DNA of 64,000 nt from Escherichia coli (GCF_050320075.1 NZ_CP190021.1), one strand, 5' to 3'; shown: positions 1-12,864, counted from the first letter of the stretch. Numbers and translations are program-made. Notes: generated from the letters alone by a model not told the origin.

Positions 1-98
1 TAACGAAGTGTGAACCAGAAACCACCCGCAAAGCAAGCCGTAAATCTGTAAAAACGCAGGAAACTGTCCTGTCTGCCCTGCTGGCGCAGACGGAGGAA

Positions 99-1952
99 GT
101 GAGCGTGCCGCTGGCCTCGCTGATTAAATCACCGCTGAATGTGCGCACGGTGCCGTATTCTGCGGAGTCCGTCAGCGAACTGGCGGAGTCCATTAAGGGC
201 GTCGGACTGCTGCAGAATCTGGTCGTGCATACCCTGCCTGGTGACCGTTACGGTGTCGCCGCAGGTGGTCGCCGACTGGCTGCACTCAACATGCTGGCAG
301 AGCGTGGCATCATTCCGGCTGACTGGCCTGTACGCGTGAAGGTTATTCCGCAGGAGCTGGCGACGGCTGCATCAATGACTGAAAACGGTCATCGTCGGGA
401 TATGCACCCTGCCGAACAGATTGCCGGATTCCGTGCGATGGCGCAGGAAGGCAAAACGCCTGCACAAATCGGTGATTTGCTGGGCTATTCGCCCCGCCAC
501 GTTCAGCGAATGCTGAAACTGGCAGACCTTGCGCCTGTCATCCTCGATGCGCTGGCAGAAGACCGCATCACCACAGAGCACTGTCAGGCGCTGGCGCTGG
601 AGAACGACACCGCGCGTCAGGTGCAGGTGTTTGAAGCCGCCTGCCAGTCGGGATGGGGCGGTAAACCGGAAGTACAGACCATTCGTCGTCTGGTGACCGA
701 AAGTGAAGTGGCGGTGGCAGGTAACAGTAAATTCCGCTTCGTGGGGGCTGATGCTTTCTCACCTGACGAACTGCGTACTGATTTGTTCAGCGATGACGGG
801 GACGGTTATGTCGACCGCGTGGCGCTCGATGCTGCCCTGCTGGAAAAACTCCAGGCTGTCGCTGAACACCTTCGGGAAGCCGAAGGCTGGGAATGGTGCG
901 CCGGACGCATGGAGCCTGTCGGTGAGTGCCGTGAGGATGCCGGAACATACCGCTGTCTGCCGGAGCCGGAAGCGGTGCTGACGGAGGCAGAAGAAGAACG
1001 CCTGAACGAACTGATGACGCGTTACGACGCGCTGGAAAACCAGTGTGAGGAATCCGACCTGCTGGAAGCAGAAATGAAGCTGATGCGCTGCATGGCGAAG
1101 GTCAGGGCGTGGACGCCGGAGATGCGTGCCGGAAGTGGCGTGGTGGTGTCCTGGCGTTATGGAAACGTATGTGTCCAGCGTGGTGTGCAGTTGCGCAGTG
1201 AAGATGACGCGACTGATGACGCTGACCGCACGGAACAGGTGCAGGAGAAAGCGTCAGTGGAGGAAATCAGTCTGCCGTTGCTGACGAAAATGTCTTCCGA
1301 ACGCACGCTGGCAGTCCAGGCAGCACTGATGCAGCAACCGGACAAATCTCTGGCACTGCTGGCATGGACGCTCTGCCTGAATGTGTTTGACAGCGGAGCG
1401 TACAGTAAACCAGCACAAATCAGCCTGGAATGTAAACATTATTCGCTGACCAGCGATGCGCCGTCAGGGAAGGAAGGTGCCGCATTCCTGGCGCTGATGG
1501 CAGAAAAAGCCCGTCTTGCGGCCCTGTTACCGGAGGGATGGTCACGGGACATGACGACGTTCCTGTCACTCAGTCAGGAGGTGCTGTTATCCCTGCTCAG
1601 TTTCTGCACCGCATGCAGCCTTAACGGTGTCCAGACCCGCGAGTGTGGTCGCACGTCACGCAGTCCGCTTGACTCACTGGAGAGCGCCATCGGTTTTCAC
1701 ATGCGCGACTGGTGGCAGCCGACGAAAGCAAACTTCTTCGGACACCTGAAAAAGCCGCAGATTATCGCAGCCCTGAATGATGCCGGACTGTCCGGTGCCG
1801 CACGGGACGCAGAGAAGATGAAGAAAGGCGATGCCGCTGAACATGCAGAGTTCCATATGAAAGACAACCGCTGGGTGCCTGGCTGGATGTGTTCACCACG
1901 TCCACAGACGGATGCCACTGAACGCGCCGATAACCTGGCTGATGCCGCCTGA
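99..1952 (+). CDS. ParB-like nuclease domain protein of the plasmid leading region; the frame is open to the window start, so the 5' end may lie outside the window
   Basis: 617-aa ORF with ParB N-terminal-like motif GGRRLAALNM and HTH-like segment; sits immediately upstream of psiB as in F/IncI leading regions; no stop codon upstream in frame back to position 3. Confidence 0.75.
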   Translation: MSVPLASLIKSPLNVRTVPYSAESVSELAESIKGVGLLQNLVVHTLPGDRYGVAAGGRRLAALNMLAERGIIPADWPVRVKVIPQELATAASMTENGHRRDMHPAEQIAGFRAMAQEGKTPAQIGDLLGYSPRHVQRMLKLADLAPVILDALAEDRITTEHCQALALENDTARQVQVFEAACQSGWGGKPEVQTIRRLVTESEVAVAGNSKFRFVGADAFSPDELRTDLFSDDGDGYVDRVALDAALLEKLQAVAEHLREAEGWEWCAGRMEPVGECREDAGTYRCLPEPEAVLTEAEEERLNELMTRYDALENQCEESDLLEAEMKLMRCMAKVRAWTPEMRAGSGVVVSWRYGNVCVQRGVQLRSEDDATDDADRTEQVQEKASVEEISLPLLTKMSSERTLAVQAALMQQPDKSLALLAWTLCLNVFDSGAYSKPAQISLECKHYSLTSDAPSGKEGAAFLALMAEKARLAALLPEGWSRDMTTFLSLSQEVLLSLLSFCTACSLNGVQTRECGRTSRSPLDSLESAIGFHMRDWWQPTKANFFGHLKKPQIIAALNDAGLSGAARDAEKMKKGDAAEHAEFHMKDNRWVPGWMCSPRPQTDATERADNLADAA

Positions 1953-2003
1953 TGAACAACCACACCGCCCCGCCGGAGACGGGGCGGCAGAGGGAGAAAT
2001 ACG

Positions 2004-2441
2004 ATGATGAATACCGAACTGACACTGAATGCCCTGCAGTCCATGAATGCCCAGGAATATGAAGAAATCCGTGCTGCGGGAAGCGATATGCGCCGTAATC
2101 TCACTCACGAGGTGATGCGTAAAGTGGACGCACCGGCTAACTGGATGATGAACGGAGAGTATGGCAGCGAGTTCGGGGGCTTTTTCCCCGTCCAGGTTCG
2201 TTTCACGCCAGCCCACGAACGTTTCCACCTGGCATTATGTTCGCCGGGAGACGTCTCTCAGCTCTGGATGCTGGTTCTGGTGAATGGTGGTGGACAGCCT
2301 TTCGCCGTCGTTCAGGTGCAACATATCTTCACGCCTGCCGCGATCAGTCACACGCTGGCGCTTGCCGCGACACTGGATGCGCAGGGATACAGTGTTAACG
2401 ACATCATCCATATCCTGATGGCAGAAGGAGGTCAGGCATGA
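2004..2441 (+). CDS. psiB: plasmid SOS inhibition protein PsiB
   Basis: 145-aa product closely matches recalled PsiB sequence ([40 protein letters not shown]); correct size and position. Confidence 0.9.
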
Positions 2442-3157
2442 GCGCACGTTCACGGGCACTGATCCCCCTCAGCGCAGAACAACAGGCCGCCATGCAGGCG
2501 GTGGCTGTCACAGAACAACGTCGTCGTCAGGGACGCACACTTTCAGCATGGCCTTATGCCACCGCTTTCTTTCGCTGCCTGAATGGCAGTCGCCGGATTT
2601 CGCTGACCGATCTCCGCTTTTTTGCCCCTGCGCTGACGAAGGAGGAATTTCATGGCAACCGTCTCCTGTGGCTGGCTGCCGTGGATAAACTGATTGAAAG
2701 TTTTGGGGAAGTCTGTGTTCTTCCCCTGCCATCCGATGCGGGGCACCGTCTGTTCCCGTCCGTGCCTTTTCGTGAAGGTGAGCGTCGTCGTCAGAAAACC
2801 ACGCTGACAGAGCAGAAATACAGCCGCCAGCGGGAACGTGAGGCAGAACGACGGGAACTGGAATACCAGACATGTTTTGCTCAGGCGCAGATTGACCTTG
2901 CGTTTCATACTCCCGCCACGGTCGGAAGCTGGTTGTCCCGCTGGTCTGGTGTTGTTGAGGAGCATGATCTGGAAACGATTTTCTGGGGGTGGTGCGGGCG
3001 TTTTCCATCACTGTCATCATTTGACCGGTTTTTCTGGCAGGAGGAACCACTCTGGCGGCTGATTTTTGAAGCCGGTGAGGCCGGTCGTGGTGCACCGGTA
3101 CAGGTACGTGCACTTGAGCAGTGGATGATCCCGAACAAGCTGGAGAACGTAATATGA
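2438..3157 (+). CDS. psiA: PsiA protein
   Basis: 239 aa, start overlaps psiB stop (coupled), typical psiB-psiA arrangement and size. Confidence 0.8.
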
Positions 3158-3750
3158 TGAAATCAGACGAAAAATACCAGGTTCCCGCGTGGATGCGACC
3201 TCTGTTGCCGTTGCTCTGCAACACCGGGGGGAACGATCCGGAAGAACTGCTGAATGATACAGAAACCACTGCCAGTGCGAATGTTGTCCGTTATGTACTG
3301 ATAGTTGCTGTGCGGTCGCAGGTTGATCTGCTGCAGCTTCTGTACAGGAAAGGGCTGTTGCGCACAGAGATACCAGGTGGCTTTTCACCGGAAGAAGCGC
3401 AGGCACTCCTGGATAATCTGGTGCGCAGCCATATCAGCAAGGCGCTGTCGGGCGAGCGAATGGCAGCCCGTGACAGAAATGCCGATCTGGCCTGGATTGG
3501 ACAGCAACTGGTCGATGACGCCTGGTTTGTCCGTGCCACACTGGAAGCGCATGGGATGAGCGTCGGAAATGAGAGTCCCCCTGCTCCGCCGGAGACAATG
3601 CCGGACATACAGACACGGGAACTGGTGATGTTGATCAAGCGACTGGCATCATCGCTGAAAGCGGTGAAACCGGACAGTTGTGTGGTGCGTGAAGCGCAGG
3701 ACTGGCTGCGCGACAGAAAACTTGTGGATATCACAGATATTCTCCGGTGA
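3154..3750 (+). CDS. hypothetical leading-region protein, translationally coupled to psiA
   Basis: ATGA overlap with psiA stop at 3154-3157; GGAG RBS upstream; 198 aa; no recognisable motif. Confidence 0.55.
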   Translation: MMKSDEKYQVPAWMRPLLPLLCNTGGNDPEELLNDTETTASANVVRYVLIVAVRSQVDLLQLLYRKGLLRTEIPGGFSPEEAQALLDNLVRSHISKALSGERMAARDRNADLAWIGQQLVDDAWFVRATLEAHGMSVGNESPPAPPETMPDIQTRELVMLIKRLASSLKAVKPDSCVVREAQDWLRDRKLVDITDILR

Positions 3751-4211
3751 ACCAGGCATGTATATTTTACGCAGGGACACGCCGATCATGATCGTTTCAT
3801 ATCAGGGGTGGTCTGGAGGTCATGCGGCGTGTCCTCTGCACTCGCCGGAATAAGGAAGTCGCCGGCGGCTCCGCTTTTACCCGGCCATGCGGGGCATGGC
3901 CTTGTGGGGTTTCAGCTCTGTGGCCTCAGCGTCGTGTGCGGGCTGTGCCGTGCCTCCATCTTAGCCGGGCTGGCAGGGATGCAAGGGTACGCTTCGCCGC
4001 TGCGGTCACCCGGTCCCTCCTTCCCGTCTGCCGTGATTTTCCGGTCGTTCGTCCGCTCAGGTTTCGCGGCCTCACCCTGCAACTCCCGTCAGCCGTGTGC
4101 GTCAGGCTGCGGCTTCCCTTGCGCCCCTGCATCCCCGCCTTATCGCCCGGCTTTTATGGAGGCACGGCACCGCCCGGTGTCGCAGAACATGTGACTATGG
4201 AGGATTCGGGA

Positions 4212-4712
4212 ATGTCTGTTGTTGCACCTGCTGTATACGTTGGAACCTGGCACAAATACAACTGTGGAAGCATCGCCGGACGCTGGTTTGACCTGACCAC
4301 GTTTGATGATGAGCGCGACTTTTTCGCCGCCTGCCGTGCTCTTCACCAGGATGAAGCCGATCCTGAACTGATGTTTCAGGATTATGAGGGATTCCCGGGG
4401 AATATGGCCTCTGAATGCCATATCAACTGGGCCTGGGTTGAAGGCTTCCGCCTGGCACGGGATGAAGGCTGCGAAGAGGCTTATCGTCTCTGGGTGGAGG
4501 ATACCGGTGAGACGGATTTTGACACCTTCCGCGATGCCTGGTGGGGCGAGGCTGACAGTGAGGAGGCTTTTGCGGTTGAGTTCGCCAGTGATACCGGCCT
4601 GCTGGCTGACGTGCCGGAGACGGTGGCGCTCTATTTTGACTATGAGGCGTATGCGCGGGATTTATTCCTGGACTCCTTCACCTTTATTGACGGTCATGTG
4701 TTCCGTCGGTGA
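4212..4712 (+). CDS. ardA: antirestriction protein ArdA (166 aa, acidic DNA-mimic family)
   Basis: Start at ATG 4212 after GGAGGA RBS; sequence [36 protein letters not shown] and acidic composition match ArdA; the longer track ORF 3822-4712 is an Arg/Pro-rich artefact of the GC-rich leader. Confidence 0.85.
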
Positions 4713-5078
4713 TTTACTCCCCCGCTCCGGCGGGGGTATGGCCTGCCAGGCCGCCGGAAAACCCTGGCAGGCTTACGCCTGCCTGAAATGCAGGAGGGCC
4801 GCGCCTGCGGCGCTGCCCTTCCTGCCCGTCATGGTGTGAGGCATTTTTCTGTTATGTCGTTTCTGTTGTTCTGATTTCCGGAGGCGGGGACACCTTCGGC
4901 TCCCGGCTGCCTGGCGGCATCCGGTCGTCAGGCCCGACTCCGACAGGCAGCTGCTGGCGCACCCGCCAGTCTCCGCCGAACCCGCTGGCGCGGTTTCGGG
5001 CTGCCGCTACGGTCCGATGTCTGAAAAACCAGGCTTGCAGCGACCGTTCCGGTCGCGCCGCCCCTGTCGCGCCGGAAA

Positions 5079-5395
5079 CGGCGCTCCCTGCACACCTGAC
5101 GGTGTGTAAGGCCACTGCGCCTGATGGCGCAGTCAACCCTTCCGCCGCCACCCCTGCGGCCTGTTTCCCGCTGTGGACTTTCCGGGGGCTGGAGTAACCA
5201 CATCCCGTTTCAGCAGTCCAGGGGAAGATATACCGTCCACAAAATTTTTAGCCATAAACCCGGCAAAAAATTTTGCGTCCGCCCCCGGACAGCTGCCCCG
5301 TGACGTGGTGACGGACGCCCCATCGGAAAGGTCCACTGCGGGGAGAAACCCCGAAGAAGTGGACGGCAGAAGGGGCTTTCGCCCCTCCGGGGAGC
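5079..5395 (-). promoter_or_regulatory. conserved structured non-coding element, copy 1 (candidate single-strand promoter / ssi-type element of the transferred strand)
   Basis: About 320 bp that align at roughly 80 percent identity with 7957-8275; frameshifting indels between copies argue against coding; lies directly upstream of ORF 5441. Confidence 0.5.
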
Positions 5396-5440
5396 AACCG
5401 GTCGGCCCGGCGACCTGATTCAGCAGAAGGAGACGTTTTC

Positions 5441-5875
5441 ATGACAGTCAGCAGCACGATTTCCGTTTTTTGCCGCGACGGGGTGTTCCGTACCGTTTAC
5501 TGCCACCTGCACGGGGAGCCGACCTGGAACGGTCGCATCCTGCATACCCACTATGCCACCGGTCAGCAGGCCGAAGCCCTGGTTGAACACGGTGATATCC
5601 GTTGCCTCGGTCCCCGTTGCGACAAACCCGCCGGGCATACGCTTCAGAACCCGGTGGACGGTGTGACGGCTTATTACGGACGTGACAGTGGTTTCCGGAT
5701 GGACAGTGAGGCGCGTGAGTACCGTTCTTTCAGGGAGGCTATTGCCACTGAAAGCACTGAAGAGGTGCGCTTCCATTATGTGTTCATCGACGGCTACTGG
5801 AAGGTGATGTACCGCACGCCGGAAGGCTGGAAGATGAAAGCGCTCGCGCTGGCACTGCGTCGCTGTCCGAAATGA
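5441..5875 (+). CDS. hypothetical protein (144 aa), first gene downstream of conserved element copy 1
   Basis: ORF with AGGAGA RBS (aagGAGAcgttttcATG); Cys/His-containing, no recognisable family. Confidence 0.6.
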   Translation: MTVSSTISVFCRDGVFRTVYCHLHGEPTWNGRILHTHYATGQQAEALVEHGDIRCLGPRCDKPAGHTLQNPVDGVTAYYGRDSGFRMDSEAREYRSFREAIATESTEEVRFHYVFIDGYWKVMYRTPEGWKMKALALALRRCPK

Positions 5876-5968
5876 AAAAAAGGCAGGGCGATAAACCCTG
5901 CCTCTCTCCGCCGGCGCTTCCCCGCCAGGAAGTCCGGCATCTCAATCACTATCTATGGAGATTATGCC

Positions 5969-6235
5969 ATGAGACCATCAATTATCTTCGCAACCGCCGA
6001 GTATGTAAAGCGTCTGCGTGAAGAGTGCCTGCGGGAGAATAAACCCCTGCACCGCCATACCCGCTTCAGACGTCAGGAGCTGGCACAGGATGAGATTAAC
6101 CCGGACGTCCTGGCGATGAGCGGCCATATCGCCAGACGCTGCAGTGAGCAGAAGCGGGTGCGTATCCCCGCTATGAAAGTCAGCGAATGGGGCCACCTGC
6201 TCCGCGCGCTTGAAATTGAGCGGGTCTGCCACTGA
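5969..6235 (+). CDS. hypothetical small basic protein (88 aa)
   Basis: ORF with GGAG RBS 9 nt upstream; Arg-rich; co-oriented directly after ORF 5441. Confidence 0.45.
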   Translation: MRPSIIFATAEYVKRLREECLRENKPLHRHTRFRRQELAQDEINPDVLAMSGHIARRCSEQKRVRIPAMKVSEWGHLLRALEIERVCH

Positions 6236-6299
6236 TTAACCCTTGCCGTCTGCCTGTGCAGGCGGCAGGATACGTTCAGACATCTCACCAGGAGGAACC

Positions 6300-7238
6300 G
6301 TGAGTCAGAAGAAAACCACCACGACGCCCACGCCGCATGATGCCGCGTTCCGGTCGTTCCTGGCGAATCCCGACGTCGCCAGAGATTTTCTGGAACTGCA
6401 TCTTCCGGCGGAGTACCGGCAGTTGTGCGACCTGTCCACGCTGAAGCTGGAACCCGCCACCTTTGTTGAGCCGGACCTGCATCAGTACGCCAGCGATATC
6501 CTCTGGAGTGTGAAAACCACCGGGGGTGAAGATGGCTATGTTTATACGCTCATCGAGCACCAGAGCACCGAAAATCTGTACATGCCTTTCCGCATGTTAC
6601 GTTACAGTGTGGCGGCGATGCAGAGACATCTGGAGCAGCACAAAACGTTGCCACTGGTGATTCCTGTACTGTTCTATCATGGTGAGCGCAGCCCGTACCC
6701 GTACAGCATGAACTGGCTGGACTGTTTTGAGAATCCGGCACTTGCGGCTAAAATATACACAAAGCCGTTTCCGCTGGTTGATATCACTGTCGTTGATGAC
6801 AATGAAATCATGAACCATCGCCGGATGGCCGCACTGACGCTGCTGATGAAGCATATCCGCCATCGTGACATGATGGAGCTGCTGGACAAACTCCCGCAGG
6901 TCATGGTGGAAATTTCAGACGAGCAGGTGCGTGTTCTGATTCATTACATCGTTAACGCAGGGGACTCTGTATCACCGGAATTTATGCGGGCGCTGGCTGA
7001 GCGTCTGCCGCAGCATGAGGATAAACTGATGACTATCGCAGAACGTCTTGAGCAAAAAGGTCGCCAGGAGGGCAGGATGGAAGGACGCATGGAAGGACGC
7101 ATGGAAGGACGCATGGAAGGAGCGCTTGAAAAAGCCCTGGCTATTGCGTGCCAGCTTCAGAAAATGGGGATGACGCCGGAGCAGATTAAGCAGGCTACCG
7201 GACTTTCCGATGACGAACTGAAGAAAATCACTCACTGA
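6300..7238 (+). CDS. Rpn-family (YhgA-like, PD-(D/E)XK) recombination-promoting nuclease / putative transposase
   Basis: GTG start after AGGAGG RBS; N-terminal HDAAFRSFL..ARDFL and core motifs typical of Rpn/YhgA proteins; C-terminal tail domain after a GRME tandem repeat. Confidence 0.8.
   Translation: MSQKKTTTTPTPHDAAFRSFLANPDVARDFLELHLPAEYRQLCDLSTLKLEPATFVEPDLHQYASDILWSVKTTGGEDGYVYTLIEHQSTENLYMPFRMLRYSVAAMQRHLEQHKTLPLVIPVLFYHGERSPYPYSMNWLDCFENPALAAKIYTKPFPLVDITVVDDNEIMNHRRMAALTLLMKHIRHRDMMELLDKLPQVMVEISDEQVRVLIHYIVNAGDSVSPEFMRALAERLPQHEDKLMTIAERLEQKGRQEGRMEGRMEGRMEGRMEGALEKALAIACQLQKMGMTPEQIKQATGLSDDELKKITH
7071..7118 (+). repeat. in-frame 12-bp tandem repeat x4 (ggacgcatggaa) encoding (GRME)4 in the Rpn linker
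   Basis: Three perfect units plus one imperfect unit read directly from sequence. Confidence 0.9.
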
Positions 7239-7249
7239 GTAAACATCAC

Positions 7250-7276
7250 AGCCCGGCAAAATGCCGGGCTTTTTTG
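7250..7276 (+). terminator. Rho-independent terminator after the Rpn gene
   Basis: Hairpin agcccggc-aaaat-gccgggct followed by a T-run. Confidence 0.7.
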
Positions 7277-7299
7277 TCAGCAGGAGCAGAGCAAATAGC

Positions 7300-7458
7300 A
7301 TGACGATTGCAGAACGTCTTATTCAAAAAGGCGCACTTGAAGTGGCGCGGGAAATAGCCTGCCGGCTGCGGGATATGGGCTGGACGCCGGAACGGATTCA
7401 GGAGGCAACCGGACTTTCCGGTGAAGAACTGAAAAAGCTGTTTCCTGATGAGCAGTAG
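7300..7458 (+). CDS. free-standing Rpn C-terminal tail-like small protein (52 aa)
   Basis: MTIAERLIQKG..GWTPERIQEATGLSGEELKKL parallels the Rpn tail MTIAERLEQKG..GMTPEQIKQATGLSDDELKKI; GGAG RBS upstream. Confidence 0.6.
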   Translation: MTIAERLIQKGALEVAREIACRLRDMGWTPERIQEATGLSGEELKKLFPDEQ

Positions 7459-7488
7459 CCTGGCATTCAGCCAGGCTGTGAATCACGC

Positions 7489-7740
7489 TCACACATCCTC
7501 TGCCGTTTCCCCCAGTTCATTTTCCAGTCGCCTGATGATATCTGCCTTACGCATCCCCTGCATGTGAGGCAGCAGGTCACGGACTGAAAGTGCCTGGGTG
7601 GTCCTCCAGACGGTGACGTCCACCTGTTCCGCATTTTCCCAGGCGTGCCATGTTCTCTGCGTCACGCCAAATTCTCTGGCCGCTTTTTCGCGTGACCAGA
7701 GCATGCTTTTTCGCCAGATTCGCAGTTCCCAGCCGGTCAT
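7489..7740 (-). CDS. small HTH DNA-binding regulator (83 aa)
   Basis: HTH-like segment REKAAREFGVTQRTWHAWE; promoter region carries twin palindromes. Confidence 0.6.
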   Translation of the reverse strand: MTGWELRIWRKSMLWSREKAAREFGVTQRTWHAWENAEQVDVTVWRTTQALSVRDLLPHMQGMRKADIIRRLENELGETAEDV

Positions 7741-7754
7741 AAAACACCTTTGAA

Positions 7755-7775
7755 AAAGTGAAAAAACTTCACTTT
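7755..7775. promoter_or_regulatory. palindromic operator-like site AAAGTGAA-N5-TTCACTTT (copy 1)
   Basis: Perfect 8-5-8 inverted repeat just upstream of the HTH gene start. Confidence 0.6.
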
Positions 7776-7821
7776 ATTTTATCATCACAATTGCCAAATC
7801 AGCGCGATAAATAAGTGTAAA

Positions 7822-7842
7822 AAAGTGAAGAAATTTCACTTT
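7822..7842. promoter_or_regulatory. palindromic operator-like site AAAGTGAA-N5-TTCACTTT (copy 2)
   Basis: Second identical 8-5-8 inverted repeat 67 bp from copy 1. Confidence 0.6.
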
Positions 7843-7956
7843 TTTTGCTTGTAAATGTCGTGCGGTTTTCTCTGTTTTCACCTGTGCGGGAGTGGTGTGC
7901 CAGTGACCACCACATGCCATTGTTGTGCCGTCGTTTTTCTTCAGTCGCGCCGTATG

Positions 7957-8275
7957 CGGCGCTCCCTGCACACCTTACGGTGTGTAAGGCCACTGCGCCT
8001 GATGGCGCAGCTGTCTCTGCCTGTCTGCCGCCGCACTGCGGCCTGTTCTCCGCAGACGGACTTTCCGGGGGTACATACATGACCACATCCCGTTTCAGTC
8101 GTCCAGGGGGGAGATGTACCAGCCACAAAACTTTTTGCCGCAGGCGTCAAAAACTTTTGCGTCTGCCCCCGGACAACTGCCCCGTGACGTGGTGAGCGTC
8201 CCCCGTCGGAAAGGTCCACTGCGGGGAAATCCCCGAAGACCCGGACGGCAGAAGGAGCTTCGCTCCTCCGGGAAA
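7957..8275 (-). promoter_or_regulatory. conserved structured non-coding element, copy 2
   Basis: Homologous to 5079-5395; directly upstream of ORF 8317. Confidence 0.5.
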
Positions 8276-8316
8276 TGACCTGGCTGTCCCGGCAGTCGTG
8301 ACGATGAGGAGACAAT

Positions 8317-9168
8317 GTGATGAATCAGACTTTACCCACTGCTGACCTGAATACTGCCGGCACGACAGATGTTATTCCGTCTGTGGCTATCGACCGCATC
8401 ATCGCGCAGCGTAACGAAGGTATTGCACTGTTCATGCAGGCGATGGAATGCCTGGCGACAGCGCGCAAGATTCTGCTCGATGCGTCAGGTGATATTTTTC
8501 TTTACGGGTTTGAAGACTGCGTGACTGATTCCGTTCGTCGCATAGATAAACCGGAAGAAGCGAAAAGGAATATCACCCGTCTTGCCGACCGGAAAATCTG
8601 GGACCGCCTGATGACAGATACGGGCATGTACACCTTCATGAGTTCATGCCAGCGTGATGAGTGGAACAGCCAGCTGATGAGCGACACCTGTCCTGAAATC
8701 ACCCTGGACAATGTACTGGCAACATTCCGCCATCTGAATGCCTGCAAGATGCAGACATTTGAACAGGGACTGATTGATGTCTACCGGAAATTGTCATGGG
8801 ATTACAGAACCAATAATCCCTGCCGTCTGGGTAAGAAAATCATTATTGAAAACCTGCTGTACCGCTGGAGTAACGGGCGTGTGACGCTGGACTGCAGCGG
8901 ACGGGAGGCACTGGATGACCTGGTACGTCCGTTTTATCTGCTGGAGGGGCGCAACGTTCCTGACTTCAGGAACAGTATCGGGGCGCAGTATGGTGAATTT
9001 CTCGGGAACGGCGACAATGTCGGTAAGCTGTTAGAAGGGGAATATTTTACGGTGCGTGGCTACCAGAAAGGGACCGTACACATTGTCTTTAAGCGTTCTG
9101 ACCTTGTTGAAAAACTGAATGATATTATTGCACGGCATTATCCAGGTGCATTGCCGCCACGAGTCTGA
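8317..9168 (+). CDS. hypothetical protein (283 aa), last + strand gene of the leading region before oriT
   Basis: ORF with AGGAGA RBS; adjacent GTG and ATG candidate starts at 8317 and 8320; no confidently recognised domain. Confidence 0.6.
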   Translation: MMNQTLPTADLNTAGTTDVIPSVAIDRIIAQRNEGIALFMQAMECLATARKILLDASGDIFLYGFEDCVTDSVRRIDKPEEAKRNITRLADRKIWDRLMTDTGMYTFMSSCQRDEWNSQLMSDTCPEITLDNVLATFRHLNACKMQTFEQGLIDVYRKLSWDYRTNNPCRLGKKIIIENLLYRWSNGRVTLDCSGREALDDLVRPFYLLEGRNVPDFRNSIGAQYGEFLGNGDNVGKLLEGEYFTVRGYQKGTVHIVFKRSDLVEKLNDIIARHYPGALPPRV

Positions 9169-9180
9169 TTAAACAGAAAA

Positions 9181-9210
9181 GCCCTGGTATTTATGCCGGG
9201 GCTTTTTTTT
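9181..9210 (+). terminator. Rho-independent terminator after ORF 8317
   Basis: Hairpin gccctgg-tatttat-gccggggc followed by T8. Confidence 0.7.
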
Positions 9211-9253
9211 CTGTAATCATCATAATCTCAGAACACGATGTGACATTGTCACA

Positions 9254-9595
9254 TCAATTGTTGTTCATATCGATGCCATCTTTCCTGCCTGAATCTGTCT
9301 TTTTAGGTGCTGTTTTAGAGGAAGAACGGCGGGATGGTTTTTTCGATTCTGCTTCCCGAATAATGTCACGAAGTGCCTTCTCTCCTACTTCATACCCTGC
9401 ATTTTTGAGCGTGTCACGAACATCTGCCAGTGTATAACCCTTTGTCCTTACCAGGACAATAATGTCATCACGAATGGCATCAAGAAAATCACGCAATGTT
9501 TTCCGTTGAGCGGTGAGATCTGGCAATTCCGATAAAGCAGCTTTTGCCAGCTGGATGTCATCATCTGAGTAAAATTTTTTAGAAGCCATTGGCAC
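9254..9595 (-). CDS. hypothetical protein with Lys/Arg/Ser-rich basic C-terminal tail (113 aa), possible DNA-binding protein, directly beside oriT
   Basis: ORF on the opposite strand to the other leading-region genes; basic tail ESKKPSRRSSSKTAPKKTDSGRK. Confidence 0.5.
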   Translation of the reverse strand: MPMASKKFYSDDDIQLAKAALSELPDLTAQRKTLRDFLDAIRDDIIVLVRTKGYTLADVRDTLKNAGYEVGEKALRDIIREAESKKPSRRSSSKTAPKKTDSGRKDGIDMNNN

Positions 9596-9647
9596 TTTCT
9601 CTCCGTTTCATGTTGAAGTCTGATTTTATCATCAAAAACTGACTCCT

Positions 9648-9776
9648 GGCAGGGCTGCGCCCTGCCTCTGCCGTCTGCATAAGACTATGATGCACAAAAA
9701 TAACAGGCTATAATGGCCTGAAAAACGGGACAGGATGTGCAATTGTATAACCGCGCACGCGCGATTATACAATTGC
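9648..9776. promoter_or_regulatory. oriT: origin of transfer (oriT) with predicted nick site on the - strand
   Basis: Inverted repeat ggcagggc-tgc-gccctgcc (9648-9666); 12-bp inverted-repeat arms gcaattgtataa/ttatacaattgc (9739-9776); minus-strand core CATCCTG/TCCCG resembling IncP/IncI nick regions, placing the nick near 9730/9731. Confidence 0.7.
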
Positions 9777-9821
9777 CTCCTGGTCAGGGCTTCGCCCCGA
9801 CACCCCAGTAAGGAGCTGACC

Positions 9822-10154
9822 GTGAGTGATAAACGTCAAAGAAGTGGTAGTGAAAGACGGCAAAAGACGATCCTGAGAGCGGTCCGGTTCTCACCGGATG
9901 AGGATGAAACTATCTGTAAGAATGCTGAAGATTCCGGACTTACTGTATCTGCTTACATCCGAAATGCAGCACTGAATAAGCGAATTAACTCCCGTACAGA
10001 TGATGCTTTTCTGAAGGAGTTAATGAGACTGGGAAGGATGCAGAAGCATCTGTTTGTTCAGGGAAAAAGAACCGGTGACAAGGAATACGCAGAAGTGCTT
10101 GTTGCCATAACCGAACTTACAAATACATTGCGTAAACAGTTAATGGAAGGTTGA
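9822..10154 (+). CDS. nikA: relaxosome accessory protein NikA (ribbon-helix-helix, 110 aa)
   Basis: GTG start after AAGGAG RBS, next to oriT and upstream of the relaxase; expected size. Confidence 0.8.
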   Translation: MSDKRQRSGSERRQKTILRAVRFSPDEDETICKNAEDSGLTVSAYIRNAALNKRINSRTDDAFLKELMRLGRMQKHLFVQGKRTGDKEYAEVLVAITELTNTLRKQLMEG

Positions 10155-10164
10155 GGATTCTCCG

Positions 10165-12864
10165 GTGAATGCAGTCATTCCGAAAAAGAGAAGGGACGGC
10201 AAGTCTTCGTTCGAAGACCTGGTATCCTACGTCTCTGTCCGGGATGACATGACCGATGAGGAACTGGATTTATCTTCTTCTTCGCAGGCTGAACAACCGC
10301 ACCGAAGCCGTTTCAGTCGCCTTGTTGATTATGCGACACGTCTTCGAAATGAGTCATTCGTGGCGCTGGTTGATGTCATGAAGGACGGCTGCGAATGGGT
10401 CAACTTTTATGGTGTCACCTGCTTTCATAACTGTACTTCTCTTGAAACTGCCGCTGCAGATATGGAGTACATTGCCCGGCAGGCACACTATGCAAAAGAT
10501 GACACTGACCCTGTTTTTCACTACATCCTTTCCTGGCAGTCACATGAAAGCCCGCGTCCGGAACAGATTTATGACAGTGTACGTCATACGCTGAAATCAC
10601 TCGGCCTTGCCGACCATCAGTATGTCTCTGCCGTGCATACTGATACAGATAATCTGCACGTCCATGTGGCTGTTAACCGGGTACACCCTGAAACGGGTTA
10701 TCTGAACCGGTTATCATGGAGTCAGGAAAAACTCAGTCGTGCCTGCCGTGAGCTTGAACTGAAGCATGGTTTTGCTCCGGATAACGGTTGCTGGGTCCAT
10801 GCGCCGGGAAATCGTATCGTTCGCAAAACTGCCGTTGAACGTGATCGCCAGAACGCCTGGACACGCGGAAAAAAACAAACTTTTCGTGAGTATGTTGCGC
10901 AGACAGCGGTCGCTGGTTTACGCAGTGAACCTGTACATGACTGGTTATCCCTGCATCGTCGTCTTGCGGAAGATGGTCTGTACCTGTCTCAGATGGACGG
11001 AAAATTTCTGGTGATGGATGGCTGGGATCGCAACAGGGAAGGTGTACAGCTTGACTCGTTTGGTCCCTCCTGGTGTGCAGAAAAACTCATGAAAAAAATG
11101 GGTGACTACACGCCAGTGCCAAAAGACATTTTCAGCCAGGTGGAAGCACCAGGACGCTATAATCCGGACTTCATTGCAGCTGATGTTCGCCCGGAAAAAA
11201 TCGCTGAAACAGAAAGTCTGCAGCAGTATGCCTGTCGTCATCTTGGAGAACGTCTGCCGGAAATGGCACGGGAAGGACGGCTGGAAAACTGCCTGGCTAT
11301 TCACCGCACACTGGCTGAAGCGGGATTATGGATGCGTGTTCAGCATGGTCACCTGGTTATCTGTGACGGTTATGATCATAACCAGACTCCCGTTCGTGCT
11401 GACAGCGTATGGTCACTGCTGACGCTCGACAATGTGAATCAACTCGATGGTGGCTGGCAGCCTGTACCAACAGATATTTTCCGCCAGGTTACGCCAACAG
11501 AACGCTTCCGTGGTCGTCGTATGGAGAGCTGTCCTGCGACCGATAAAGAATGGCACCGTATGCGTACAGGTACGGGGCCGCAGGGGGCTATCAAACGCGA
11601 ACTGTTTTCTGACAAAGAAAGTCTGTGGGGATACAGCATCAGCCATTGTAGCCCTCAGATTGAAGAAATGATCACACAGGGTGAGTTTACCTGGCAGCGT
11701 TGTCATGAGTTGTTTGCACAACAGGGACTGATGCTACAGAAACAACATCACGGGCTTGTTGTCGTTGATGCTTTTAATCATGAGCAAACGCCGGTGAAAG
11801 CCAGCAGCATTCATCCTGATCTGACACTGGGGCGTGCGGAGCCACAGGCCGGACCTTTTGTGAGTGCTCCAGCAGATTTGTTTGACAGGGTGCAACCTGA
11901 AAATCGCTATAACCCGGAGCTGGCTGTCAGTGACAGGTACGGGGTCAGCAGTAAACGTGACCCAATGCTGCGCCGGCAGCGACGTGAAGCCAGGGCTGAG
12001 GCCCGTGCTGACCTGCGTGCCCGCTATCTGGCATGGCGTGAACAATGGCGTAAACCGGATCTGCGTTATGGGGAACGTTGTCGGGAAATTCATCAGGCAT
12101 GCCGTCTGCGGAAGTCACACATTCGTGCGCAGTACGATGATCCGGCATTACGTAAGCTGCATTATCACATTGCAGAAGTTCAGCGAATGCAGGCATTGAT
12201 CAGGCTGAAAGAAGACATCAGGGATGAGCGACAGAAACTTATTGCTGACGGGAAATGGTATCCACCCTCTTACCGTCAGTGGGTCGAAATTCAGGCTGCT
12301 CAGGGAGACAGGGCTGCTGTATCGCAGTTGAGAGGCTGGGATTATCGCGATCGCCGTAAAGACAAGTCACGCACAACGACGACAGACCGCTGTGTCGTGC
12401 TTTGTGAACCGGGCGGAACGCCGGTATACGGTAATACCGGTGATCTCGAGGCCCGTCTGCAGAAGAACGGGAGTGTTCGTTTCCGTGACCGTCGGACGGG
12501 AGAGTTTGTCTGTACGGATTATGGTGACAGAGTTGTTTTCCGTAATCACCATGACCGCAATGCGCTGGCAGATAAACTGGATTTGATTGCACCGGTATTA
12601 TTCGGGCGTGATCCACGCATGGGGTTTGAACCAGAAGGAAACGACAAACAATTTAACCAGGTCTTTGCTGAAATGGTTGCCTGGCATAATGTGACAGGCC
12701 GTACCGGTCACGAAGACTACAGGATTACGCGACCGGACGTGGATCATCACCGTGAAGGAAGTGAACGCTACTACCGCGATTATATCGCGGCGAACAGCAA
12801 CGATGACGCATCACTGCCTCCGCCGGAGCAGGATAAACGCTGGGAACCGCCTTCTCCAGGTTAA
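10165..12864 (+). CDS. nikB: conjugative relaxase NikB (899 aa)
   Basis: Relaxase histidine triad HTDTDNLHVHVAVN; size and position match the IncI1 relaxase. Confidence 0.9.
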   Translation: MNAVIPKKRRDGKSSFEDLVSYVSVRDDMTDEELDLSSSSQAEQPHRSRFSRLVDYATRLRNESFVALVDVMKDGCEWVNFYGVTCFHNCTSLETAAADMEYIARQAHYAKDDTDPVFHYILSWQSHESPRPEQIYDSVRHTLKSLGLADHQYVSAVHTDTDNLHVHVAVNRVHPETGYLNRLSWSQEKLSRACRELELKHGFAPDNGCWVHAPGNRIVRKTAVERDRQNAWTRGKKQTFREYVAQTAVAGLRSEPVHDWLSLHRRLAEDGLYLSQMDGKFLVMDGWDRNREGVQLDSFGPSWCAEKLMKKMGDYTPVPKDIFSQVEAPGRYNPDFIAADVRPEKIAETESLQQYACRHLGERLPEMAREGRLENCLAIHRTLAEAGLWMRVQHGHLVICDGYDHNQTPVRADSVWSLLTLDNVNQLDGGWQPVPTDIFRQVTPTERFRGRRMESCPATDKEWHRMRTGTGPQGAIKRELFSDKESLWGYSISHCSPQIEEMITQGEFTWQRCHELFAQQGLMLQKQHHGLVVVDAFNHEQTPVKASSIHPDLTLGRAEPQAGPFVSAPADLFDRVQPENRYNPELAVSDRYGVSSKRDPMLRRQRREARAEARADLRARYLAWREQWRKPDLRYGERCREIHQACRLRKSHIRAQYDDPALRKLHYHIAEVQRMQALIRLKEDIRDERQKLIADGKWYPPSYRQWVEIQAAQGDRAAVSQLRGWDYRDRRKDKSRTTTTDRCVVLCEPGGTPVYGNTGDLEARLQKNGSVRFRDRRTGEFVCTDYGDRVVFRNHHDRNALADKLDLIAPVLFGRDPRMGFEPEGNDKQFNQVFAEMVAWHNVTGRTGHEDYRITRPDVDHHREGSERYYRDYIAANSNDDASLPPPEQDKRWEPPSPG

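Follow-up and report, generated by a model that had tools for sequence, protein, structure and literature searches.

The 64,000-nucleotide (nt) stretch of Escherichia coli DNA analysed here (GCF_050320075.1, NZ_CP190021.1; hereafter the window, with positions counted from its first letter) carries the genes psiB and psiA, followed on the plus strand by an open reading frame (ORF) at positions 3154 to 3750. The frame comprises 198 codons and ends with the stop codon TGA at 3748–3750 (597 nt in total). It is highly probable that this ORF is ygaA, a real gene that is placed last in the psiB-psiA operon. The name YgaA is that of plasmid R64 and is given in source annotation (protein P0059) and in the gene table of plasmid pESBL (O3K_25907, ‘Hp15’). 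The protein is 100% identical to WP_000977997.1, a ‘hypothetical protein’ of plasmid pND11_107 in RefSeq, and the 597 nt of DNA are 100% identical in many IncI-type conjugative plasmids of E. coli and Salmonella, with DNA-level matches to ygaA in 1,722 plasmids of PLSDB. YgaA of R64, ColIb-P9 and pESBL is the product of this same gene, which there too lies between psiA and ardA and belongs to the operon already published.

The existence and name of the ORF, its place in the operon and its dispensability are thus already on record. What is known under the name YgaA amounts to the name itself and a ‘non-essential’ call from transposon-insertion sequencing (Tn-seq), with no function, family or structure. 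In the Tn-seq study of pESBL from 2014, ygaA was classified as non-essential for maintenance and transfer with a probability of 1.00 (PMC4288162). This study and the preprint of Benz et al. are the mentions that were found in the literature, where no functional study of ygaA was encountered, and a search by accession or locus tag returned the 2014 paper alone. With regard to the earlier note on this DNA, which presented the gene as an unknown one and proposed a homology search, that search does lead to a leading-region gene with a name, although not to one that has been characterised. The additions made by the present analysis are the three-module architecture of the protein and its sequence link to prophage and IncI2 proteins, which are described below.

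The start of ygaA lies within psiA. The two genes overlap by 4 nt, with the ATG of ygaA at 3154–3156 and the TGA of psiA at 3155–3157 forming an ATGA that is read directly from the sequence. The junction reads GAG AAC GTA ATA TGA TGA AA, the C-terminus of PsiA being LENVI*, and a second ATG (3157–3159) comes right after the first. A Shine-Dalgarno sequence, GGAG, is found on the plus strand at 3142–3145, within the 3’ end of psiA and 8 nt before the ATG at 3154. ORF calling extends the frame up to a GTG at 3121 (209 amino acids, aa), but the ATG at 3154 is preferred because of the RefSeq annotation, the position of the Shine-Dalgarno sequence and the N-termini of the homologues, which begin where this ATG begins (MSKS.KELYAVP.WM...). 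Sequence reading and translation therefore bear out the ATGA overlap and the 198-aa frame described in the earlier note. The coupling to psiA that it proposed is permitted by the overlap, the common orientation and the Shine-Dalgarno sequence, although overlaps of this kind are generic in such gene arrays. That the protein would be ‘made stoichiometrically’ with the Psi proteins does not follow, as an ATGA overlap permits coupling and sets no ratio.

Upstream of ygaA, psiB occupies positions 2007 to 2441 and psiA positions 2438 to 3157, both on the plus strand. The names given to them by the earlier note are correct, as psiB matches NF010255 at 2e-79 and psiA matches NF010258 at 4.6e-113, with Pfam in agreement (PF06290 and PF06952, respectively). 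The psiB stop codon and the psiA ATG also overlap as ATGA, at 2438–2441. A search of the plus strand from position 1 to the ygaA stop at 3750 found no sigma-70-like promoter and no terminator; psiB and ygaA, which are co-oriented, joined through 4-nt overlaps and have no promoter or terminator found between them, lie in one transcription unit. The same grouping has been described by Benz et al. (bioRxiv 10.1101/2022.07.06.498992) as the ‘ssi3 operon’, formed by ykfF, parB-like, psiB, psiA, ygaA and ygbA. The presumed operon promoter, ssi3, lies upstream of the window. In pESBL, six operons with single-stranded DNA (ssDNA) promoters were induced up to ~500-fold in recipients 15 min after mating (PMC12672017), and from its operon membership ygaA is inferred to share this zygotic induction, including read-through from ssi3.

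The wider context agrees with this placement. Positions 1 to 11749 of the window are collinear with pND11_107 at 99.5% identity, where the order is ssb, DUF905 (ykfF), ParB-like, psiB, psiA, ygaA, ardA, several small ORFs and nikA-nikB. This collinearity, with nikA-nikB downstream, identifies the region as an IncI1 leading region with its genes reading towards the origin of transfer (oriT); ygaA is transcribed in this direction, oriented like psiB and ardA and with nikA and nikB downstream on the same strand. Overlaps of 4 nt are present at 3 of the 17 same-strand junctions of this leading region, and the one between psiA and ygaA is kept in the five IncI alleles compared.

Searches of Pfam, NCBIfam and PADLOC gave no family match for YgaA, and neither single-sequence nor profile searches against the PDB sequences gave a match above threshold, so that the absence of a recognisable motif reported in the earlier note stands. 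Sub-threshold hits to TilS_C (E 0.045–0.085) and to 1cqd (E 1.1) were discarded as noise. A phmmer search of 1.84 billion cluster representatives returned 255 matches, none of which, outside IncI plasmids, was a full-length relative. When the matches were sorted by the part of YgaA that they cover, three independent modules, N, M and C, became apparent: among 212 proteins, 81 cover N only, 52 M only, 16 M and C, 3 N and C, and 10 C only. The motif positions of the modules are at least 90% conserved across distant bacteria.

The N module (aa 1–70; positions 3154–3363, plus strand) is defined by the 81 N-only homologues, many of which are free-standing proteins of 70–100 aa from diverse bacteria, and carries the motif P.WM....L..NTGGN..EEL..D.....N..R..LIV.V.SQ..LL. 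The M module (aa 71–133; 3364–3552, plus strand), defined by the 52 M-only homologues, is usually a C-terminal or internal block of longer proteins and has the motif LPGGF.IE.AKEL...LV.SHIS.ALSGEKM...D.DADL.WI...IV.AAWFVKA. It is followed by an unconserved linker with 5 prolines in 20 residues (aa 134–153; 3553–3612, plus strand), which is predicted to be disordered. The C module (aa 154–198; 3613–3747, plus strand) is the sole part of YgaA that matches PHROGs (phrog_660 at 6e-8 and phrog_924 at 2.8e-6), and these two, like all other related PHROGs, have no function assigned. Its motif, ELTMLVK.L...LK..KP...LPD.A..YL....LI...D.LR, is always found at the extreme C-terminus of the proteins that carry it, among them the prophage proteins P0076 and P0094–P0098, which end in the same module.

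An AlphaFold2 model was built from a query-anchored, X-padded alignment of the real phmmer-aligned residues. The model is all-helical, with three short helical modules, a disordered linker and no long coiled coil. In terms of the predicted local distance difference test (pLDDT), the N module is a three-helix domain scoring 87–96 at residues 11–60 and 82 at residues 61–70, the M module is a helical hairpin at 51–74, the linker region falls below 50 (residues 134–157) and the C module is of low confidence, at 37–56. YgaA is accordingly predicted to be an all-helical protein without a catalytic or DNA-binding signature. Three other readings of the protein were considered and rejected. The N and M modules are not internal repeats, as the resemblance between ‘NTGGN..EEL’ and ‘PGGF..EEA’ in a MAFFT alignment was not borne out by hhalign of the two module profiles (probability 2.6% over 10 columns). 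The segment ‘LLPLLC’ does not point to a lipoprotein or a secreted protein, since its cysteine is unconserved in homologues and the N-terminus does not resemble a signal peptide. A DNA mimic of the ArdA or Ocr type does not fit a net charge of -4 over 198 aa and the absence of a match to PF07275.

The relatives of the modules lie in prophages and in other plasmids. Protein P0076, which combines M and C, comes from a Qin-like lambdoid prophage (locus L002). Its gene lies in the nin-type region between the replication genes and rusA/Q, has Ead/Ea22-like genes around it and a 4-nt overlap with the gene upstream, and is followed by hok. An N-module protein, P0111, is encoded in the nin-type region of another prophage (L004), where its gene is overlap-coupled to one for a ParB helix-turn-helix protein, and in L015, an element that also has DUF932 and SprT-like genes nearby, another N-module gene is found coupled to one of the DUF2786/DUF7168 type. 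All five module genes examined in prophages and other elements (L002, L004, L015, L016 and L017) show a 4-nt overlap with an unrelated upstream gene. In the two lambdoid prophages the YgaA-module arrays are followed by hok/gef genes (L002 8936–9148 and L004 10767–10919), in the former directly after the M plus C gene; this placement echoes the psiA-hok order found in IncF plasmids and may reflect a shared recombination history.

The M module ties YgaA to a known class of mosaic phage genes, as it is 53–60% identical to blocks in genes annotated as Ea22 or DUF551. In the exo-xis region of the Shiga toxin (Stx) phage P13374 it is present in ORF12, beside two ead/Ea22-like genes, and in phage PhiR5_1 the M-containing gene is itself annotated as Ea22. 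The longer M-bearing proteins place an Ea22-like N-terminal block first and DUF551 or the C module at the end; in P0098, P0104 and P0110 the N-terminal half is the Ea22-like block ‘MTTITKERL...IALASLEAEP’. With regard to plasmids, about 500 further ones match YgaA at less than 60% identity, which among the matches listed is through the M module only and mostly in IncI2 plasmids of ~60 kb. One of these, pNB4833-NDM-13, encodes a 108-aa protein formed by an Ea22-type N-terminal helix and the M module (L008 4863–5189), near mobC and the relaxase gene. Since its transcription runs away from the presumed oriT, this gene may not be expressed from the incoming strand.

YgaA shares M, and sometimes C, blocks with the Ead/Ea22-like and DUF551 mosaic proteins at 45–60% identity, and it resembles them in being modular, early and encoded in operons that are densely coupled by overlaps. 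It differs from them in having no match to PF13935 or PF04448, no Ea22 N-terminal domain and no central coiled coil, while its N module is a block other than that of Ea22 and is found mostly in small stand-alone proteins. PF13935 (Ead_Ea22) does not match YgaA at E < 0.1 and matches the M-carrying partner proteins at best below threshold (P0102, 20.5 bits against a cut-off of 27). The studied Ea22 used for comparison was that of the 933W region. N, M and C are all absent from the first 12 kb of phage 933W, with its exo-xis region, and a link to this experimentally studied Ea22 was dropped on that account. These sequence relationships show YgaA to be built of blocks that move about among the accessory genes that phages and plasmids express earliest. 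The literature searched held no description of a link between ygaA and the Ea22-like or nin-region mosaic genes.

The variation of ygaA among plasmids indicates that it is a genuine protein-coding gene. Five IncI alleles, with protein differences of up to ~8%, were compared through pairwise Nei-Gojobori estimates of the ratio of non-synonymous to synonymous substitution rates (dN/dS). All five keep the 597-nt frame uninterrupted and have ...D(I/V)LR at the C-terminus, and synonymous changes per site outnumber non-synonymous ones in every informative pair. The dN/dS ratio of ygaA is 0.16–0.56, against 0.07–0.16 for psiA, 0.05–0.14 for psiB and 0.16–0.26 for ardA in the same plasmid pairs. Judged on these ratios, ygaA is under purifying selection that is looser than that on psiAB and similar to that on ardA. 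In agreement with the looser selection, PsiA is at least 99% identical to that of the window in most IncI plasmids, whereas YgaA is only 90–95% identical.

Among ~1,727 close plasmid copies in PLSDB, 1,692 hold the full-length frame (at least 80% of the protein). Natural variants of other kinds were also observed: P0032 (32 contigs) reads through into the hairpin region of ardA instead of having the C module, P0038 has a KlcA-like N-terminus fused to YgaA residues 64–198, P0023 has an internal deletion of 30 aa, and P0047 has other sequence in place of most of the N module (about residues 20–66). P0035 is a further variant, and some of the five may be assembly artefacts.

Downstream of ygaA, a gap of 461 nt separates the gene from ardA, which occupies positions 4212 to 4712 of the plus strand (PF07275 at 2.8e-29). 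The gap contains a long imperfect hairpin at 3852–4204, identified from inverted repeats and from the fold of the minus strand, which is the template and transferred strand. Its arms lie at 3939–3970/4145–4176 and 3963–3987/4116–4140, and as template-strand ssDNA it folds with -79.7 kcal/mol (z = -4.67). The segment is 93% identical to one upstream of a klcA-like gene in pND11_107 (L001 1752–2105). Such ‘class 2’ ssDNA promoters have been described 5’ of ardA and klcA in pESBL (PMC12672017), and the match to this description implies that ardA begins a new, independently promoted unit and that ygaA ends the one that runs from ssb to psiA. Small plus-strand ORFs were called at 3680–3853 and 3808–4194, overlapping the ardA hairpin, in a stretch where RefSeq has no annotation; they are probably not genes, and one of them may be the ‘ygbA’ of R64-style annotation.

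Further elements accompany this arrangement. A repeated element is present in two copies, at 4894–5387 and 7944–8272, which are 82% identical to each other and are probably, on sequence grounds, the class-1 ssi/Frpo-type single-strand promoters ssi2 and ssi1; ORFs called on the minus strand across them are probably spurious. An element upstream of ssb in pND11_107 (L001 3398–3894) is 90% identical to the class-1 copy at 4894–5387, and the three elements together fit three promoters of this type. An Rfam search of positions 1–12000 of the window gave no match. Upstream in the operon, the ParB-like gene (99–1952, plus strand) carries the Pfam domains ParB_N and HTH_ParB and is annotated in pND11_107 as a ParB/RepB/Spo0J family protein; its listed 5’ end at 99 may be an ORF-caller start. 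It sits at the operon position of YfjB of plasmid F, an equivalence that is positional only. In a July 2026 preprint, F YfjB was renamed HerB and described as a zygotically induced protein that reprograms host transcription and lowers the cost of plasmid acquisition (PMC13370423). Further downstream, an ORF of the Rpn family (recombination-promoting nuclease-like; 6243–7238) carries a tandem (MEGR)n peptide repeat, and its last 109 nt (7117–7225) recur at 75% identity in the next small ORF (7261–7458, at 7328–7436).

With regard to function, a host-directed role is proposed for YgaA because its operon neighbours PsiB, ArdA and F HerB act on host factors. RecA is the target of PsiB, and type I restriction enzymes are that of ArdA. 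Under this proposal, the operon ssb-ykfF-parB-like-psiB-psiA-ygaA would be transcribed from the ssi3 ssDNA promoter on the incoming strand within the first minutes of conjugative entry, and YgaA translation would be coupled to that of psiA via the ATGA overlap and the internal Shine-Dalgarno sequence. The protein would then be made transiently in the new host as a non-enzymatic binding or adaptor protein that binds and neutralises or redirects a factor of the host, be it part of a defence system or a regulator of physiology, and this would aid plasmid establishment to an extent that depends on the recipient. The gene itself would fill the slot after psiA as an occupant that can be exchanged, without being a dedicated component of the Psi system. 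We give the reading of YgaA as a non-enzymatic host-factor binder that helps establishment a probability of roughly 0.3 to 0.4.

The proposal is in keeping with the location of the gene, as leading regions are enriched in anti-defence genes (PMC11541004; Samuel et al. 2024). Like the leading-region anti-defence proteins ArdA, KlcA/ArdB and the anti-CRISPR proteins (Acr), YgaA is small, is encoded in an anti-defence-rich location, would be expressed early from an ssDNA promoter and evolves faster than its core neighbours. Unlike them, it has no homology to any of these proteins and, with its net charge, is not a DNA mimic. Several observations weigh against the proposal. In matings between laboratory strains of E. 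coli, Tn-seq detected no contribution of ygaA to either maintenance or transfer (PMC4288162), and in a study of pMS7163B by transposon-directed insertion-site sequencing (TraDIS) ygaA was not among the conjugation genes; these null results fit a conditional role or no role equally. Furthermore, variants without the C module, such as P0032, imply that part of the protein is dispensable in some plasmids, and the host target of YgaA is itself hypothetical. A more specific version of the proposal is that N, M and C represent new families of host-targeting effector modules, swapped between plasmid leading regions and the early regions of lambdoid prophages, with YgaA as a multi-headed early inhibitor in which each module binds a different target. 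This extension is speculative, and rather doubtful as it stands. If it were true, the targets could be, for instance, a defence system or a recombination or SOS-linked host factor. At present, ygaA is a reasonable candidate for a new early-effector family, which does not amount to establishing such a family.

Other explanations have to be weighed against the host-factor binder. The earlier note suggested that YgaA could be a third component of the psi operon, which would imply that it binds or tunes PsiA, PsiB or RecA in SOS inhibition. Part of this suggestion holds, since ygaA shares an operon with psiB: it belongs to the same early unit and strand, presumably with the same zygotic induction, and in all five IncI alleles it comes immediately after psiA, to which its start is coupled by the overlap. 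PsiA’s own role is ill defined, so that there is room for partners. Transposon insertions in pESBL had no effect on maintenance or transfer, the two traits scored (PMC4288162), which in part corresponds to the absence of a deletion phenotype that the earlier note had named as speaking against its suggestion. There is, however, no sequence relationship between YgaA and the Psi proteins, as YgaA matches neither the PsiA (PF06952, NF010258) nor the PsiB models (PF06290, NF010255), to which the neighbouring ORFs match strongly. The plasmid and taxonomic range of YgaA is also far narrower. Genes for PsiA are found in at least 5,000 plasmids (3,149 at 60–80% identity, with IncF in every match listed of that band) and psiB-psiA pairs likewise in at least 5,000, against ~1,700 for ygaA. 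The full-length gene is present in 1,692 plasmids, all of the IncI complex, so most psiA plasmids lack it and its co-occurrence with psiB-psiA across plasmid families is not consistent. In IncF plasmids the place after psiA is taken by a hok toxin gene (L018 3533–3658) or, in pRHB01-C18_3, by a 172-aa ORF (L009 4220–4738) that overlaps the last base of the psiA stop by 1 nt, is unrelated to YgaA, lacks any Pfam match and carries an E-V-K motif. What follows psiA thus varies from plasmid to plasmid, and this variable slot, together with the narrower distribution of ygaA, argues that the gene is not a conserved Psi partner. The occurrence of YgaA modules in prophages and IncI2 plasmids without psi genes, the generic nature of 4-nt overlaps and the faster evolution of YgaA than of PsiA point in the same direction and make a dedicated role in the Psi system quite improbable.

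The relationship to phage genes allows for another explanation, in which YgaA would be an early modulator of the Ea22 type that acts on host physiology or on the developmental state of the element and does not inhibit defence; an example would be an effect on how the host survives or grows once it has acquired the element. Ea22 proteins are modular and early and favour host survival and lysogeny (PMC7093339, PMC10834534), the M module is common to Ea22, Ea22-like and DUF551 proteins of Stx-phage exo-xis regions, and HerB, the counterpart in F of a neighbouring position, lowers the acquisition cost through host reprogramming. This modulator is nonetheless unlikely, as YgaA has neither a PF13935 match nor a long coiled coil and the studied 933W exo-xis region lacks all three modules; moreover, the analogy predicts little because the molecular mechanism of Ea22 is itself not known. 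We hold it to be on a par with the explanation that YgaA is a dispensable mosaic passenger, derived from prophage gene fragments and with little or no contribution to fitness. The mosaic build of the protein, its chimeric, truncated and internally deleted variants (P0032, P0038, P0023 and P0047), the lack of a Tn-seq phenotype and the ease with which some hosts give rise to deletions of the leading region, psiAB included (bioRxiv 10.64898/2026.02.20.706986), would all suit a passenger. The purifying selection (omega, the dN/dS ratio, of about 0.2–0.5), the full-length frame kept in nearly all close plasmid copies and the conservation of the modules across distant bacteria would not. The same purifying selection, with omega below 1, bears on the possibility that ygaA is a chance open frame from which no protein is made; for this the absence of a family assignment is the sole argument, and the Shine-Dalgarno sequence at the right distance and the hundreds of homologues per module in independent genomic contexts stand against it, so that it is effectively refuted. 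The Psi partner, the Ea22-like modulator and the mosaic passenger are not sharply separable from one another.

The finding itself is an ordinary one, given that the ORF and its operon membership had already been published. IncI1 plasmids are major carriers of resistance due to extended-spectrum beta-lactamases (ESBL) and AmpC, and the leading region has come to be viewed as a hub of establishment and anti-defence functions. Within the strongly induced psiB operon, ygaA is among the few genes without an assigned role. Owing to the link with Ea22-like and nin-region genes, hundreds of ORFs in phages and plasmids could be annotated through a single functional assay of YgaA or of its separate modules.

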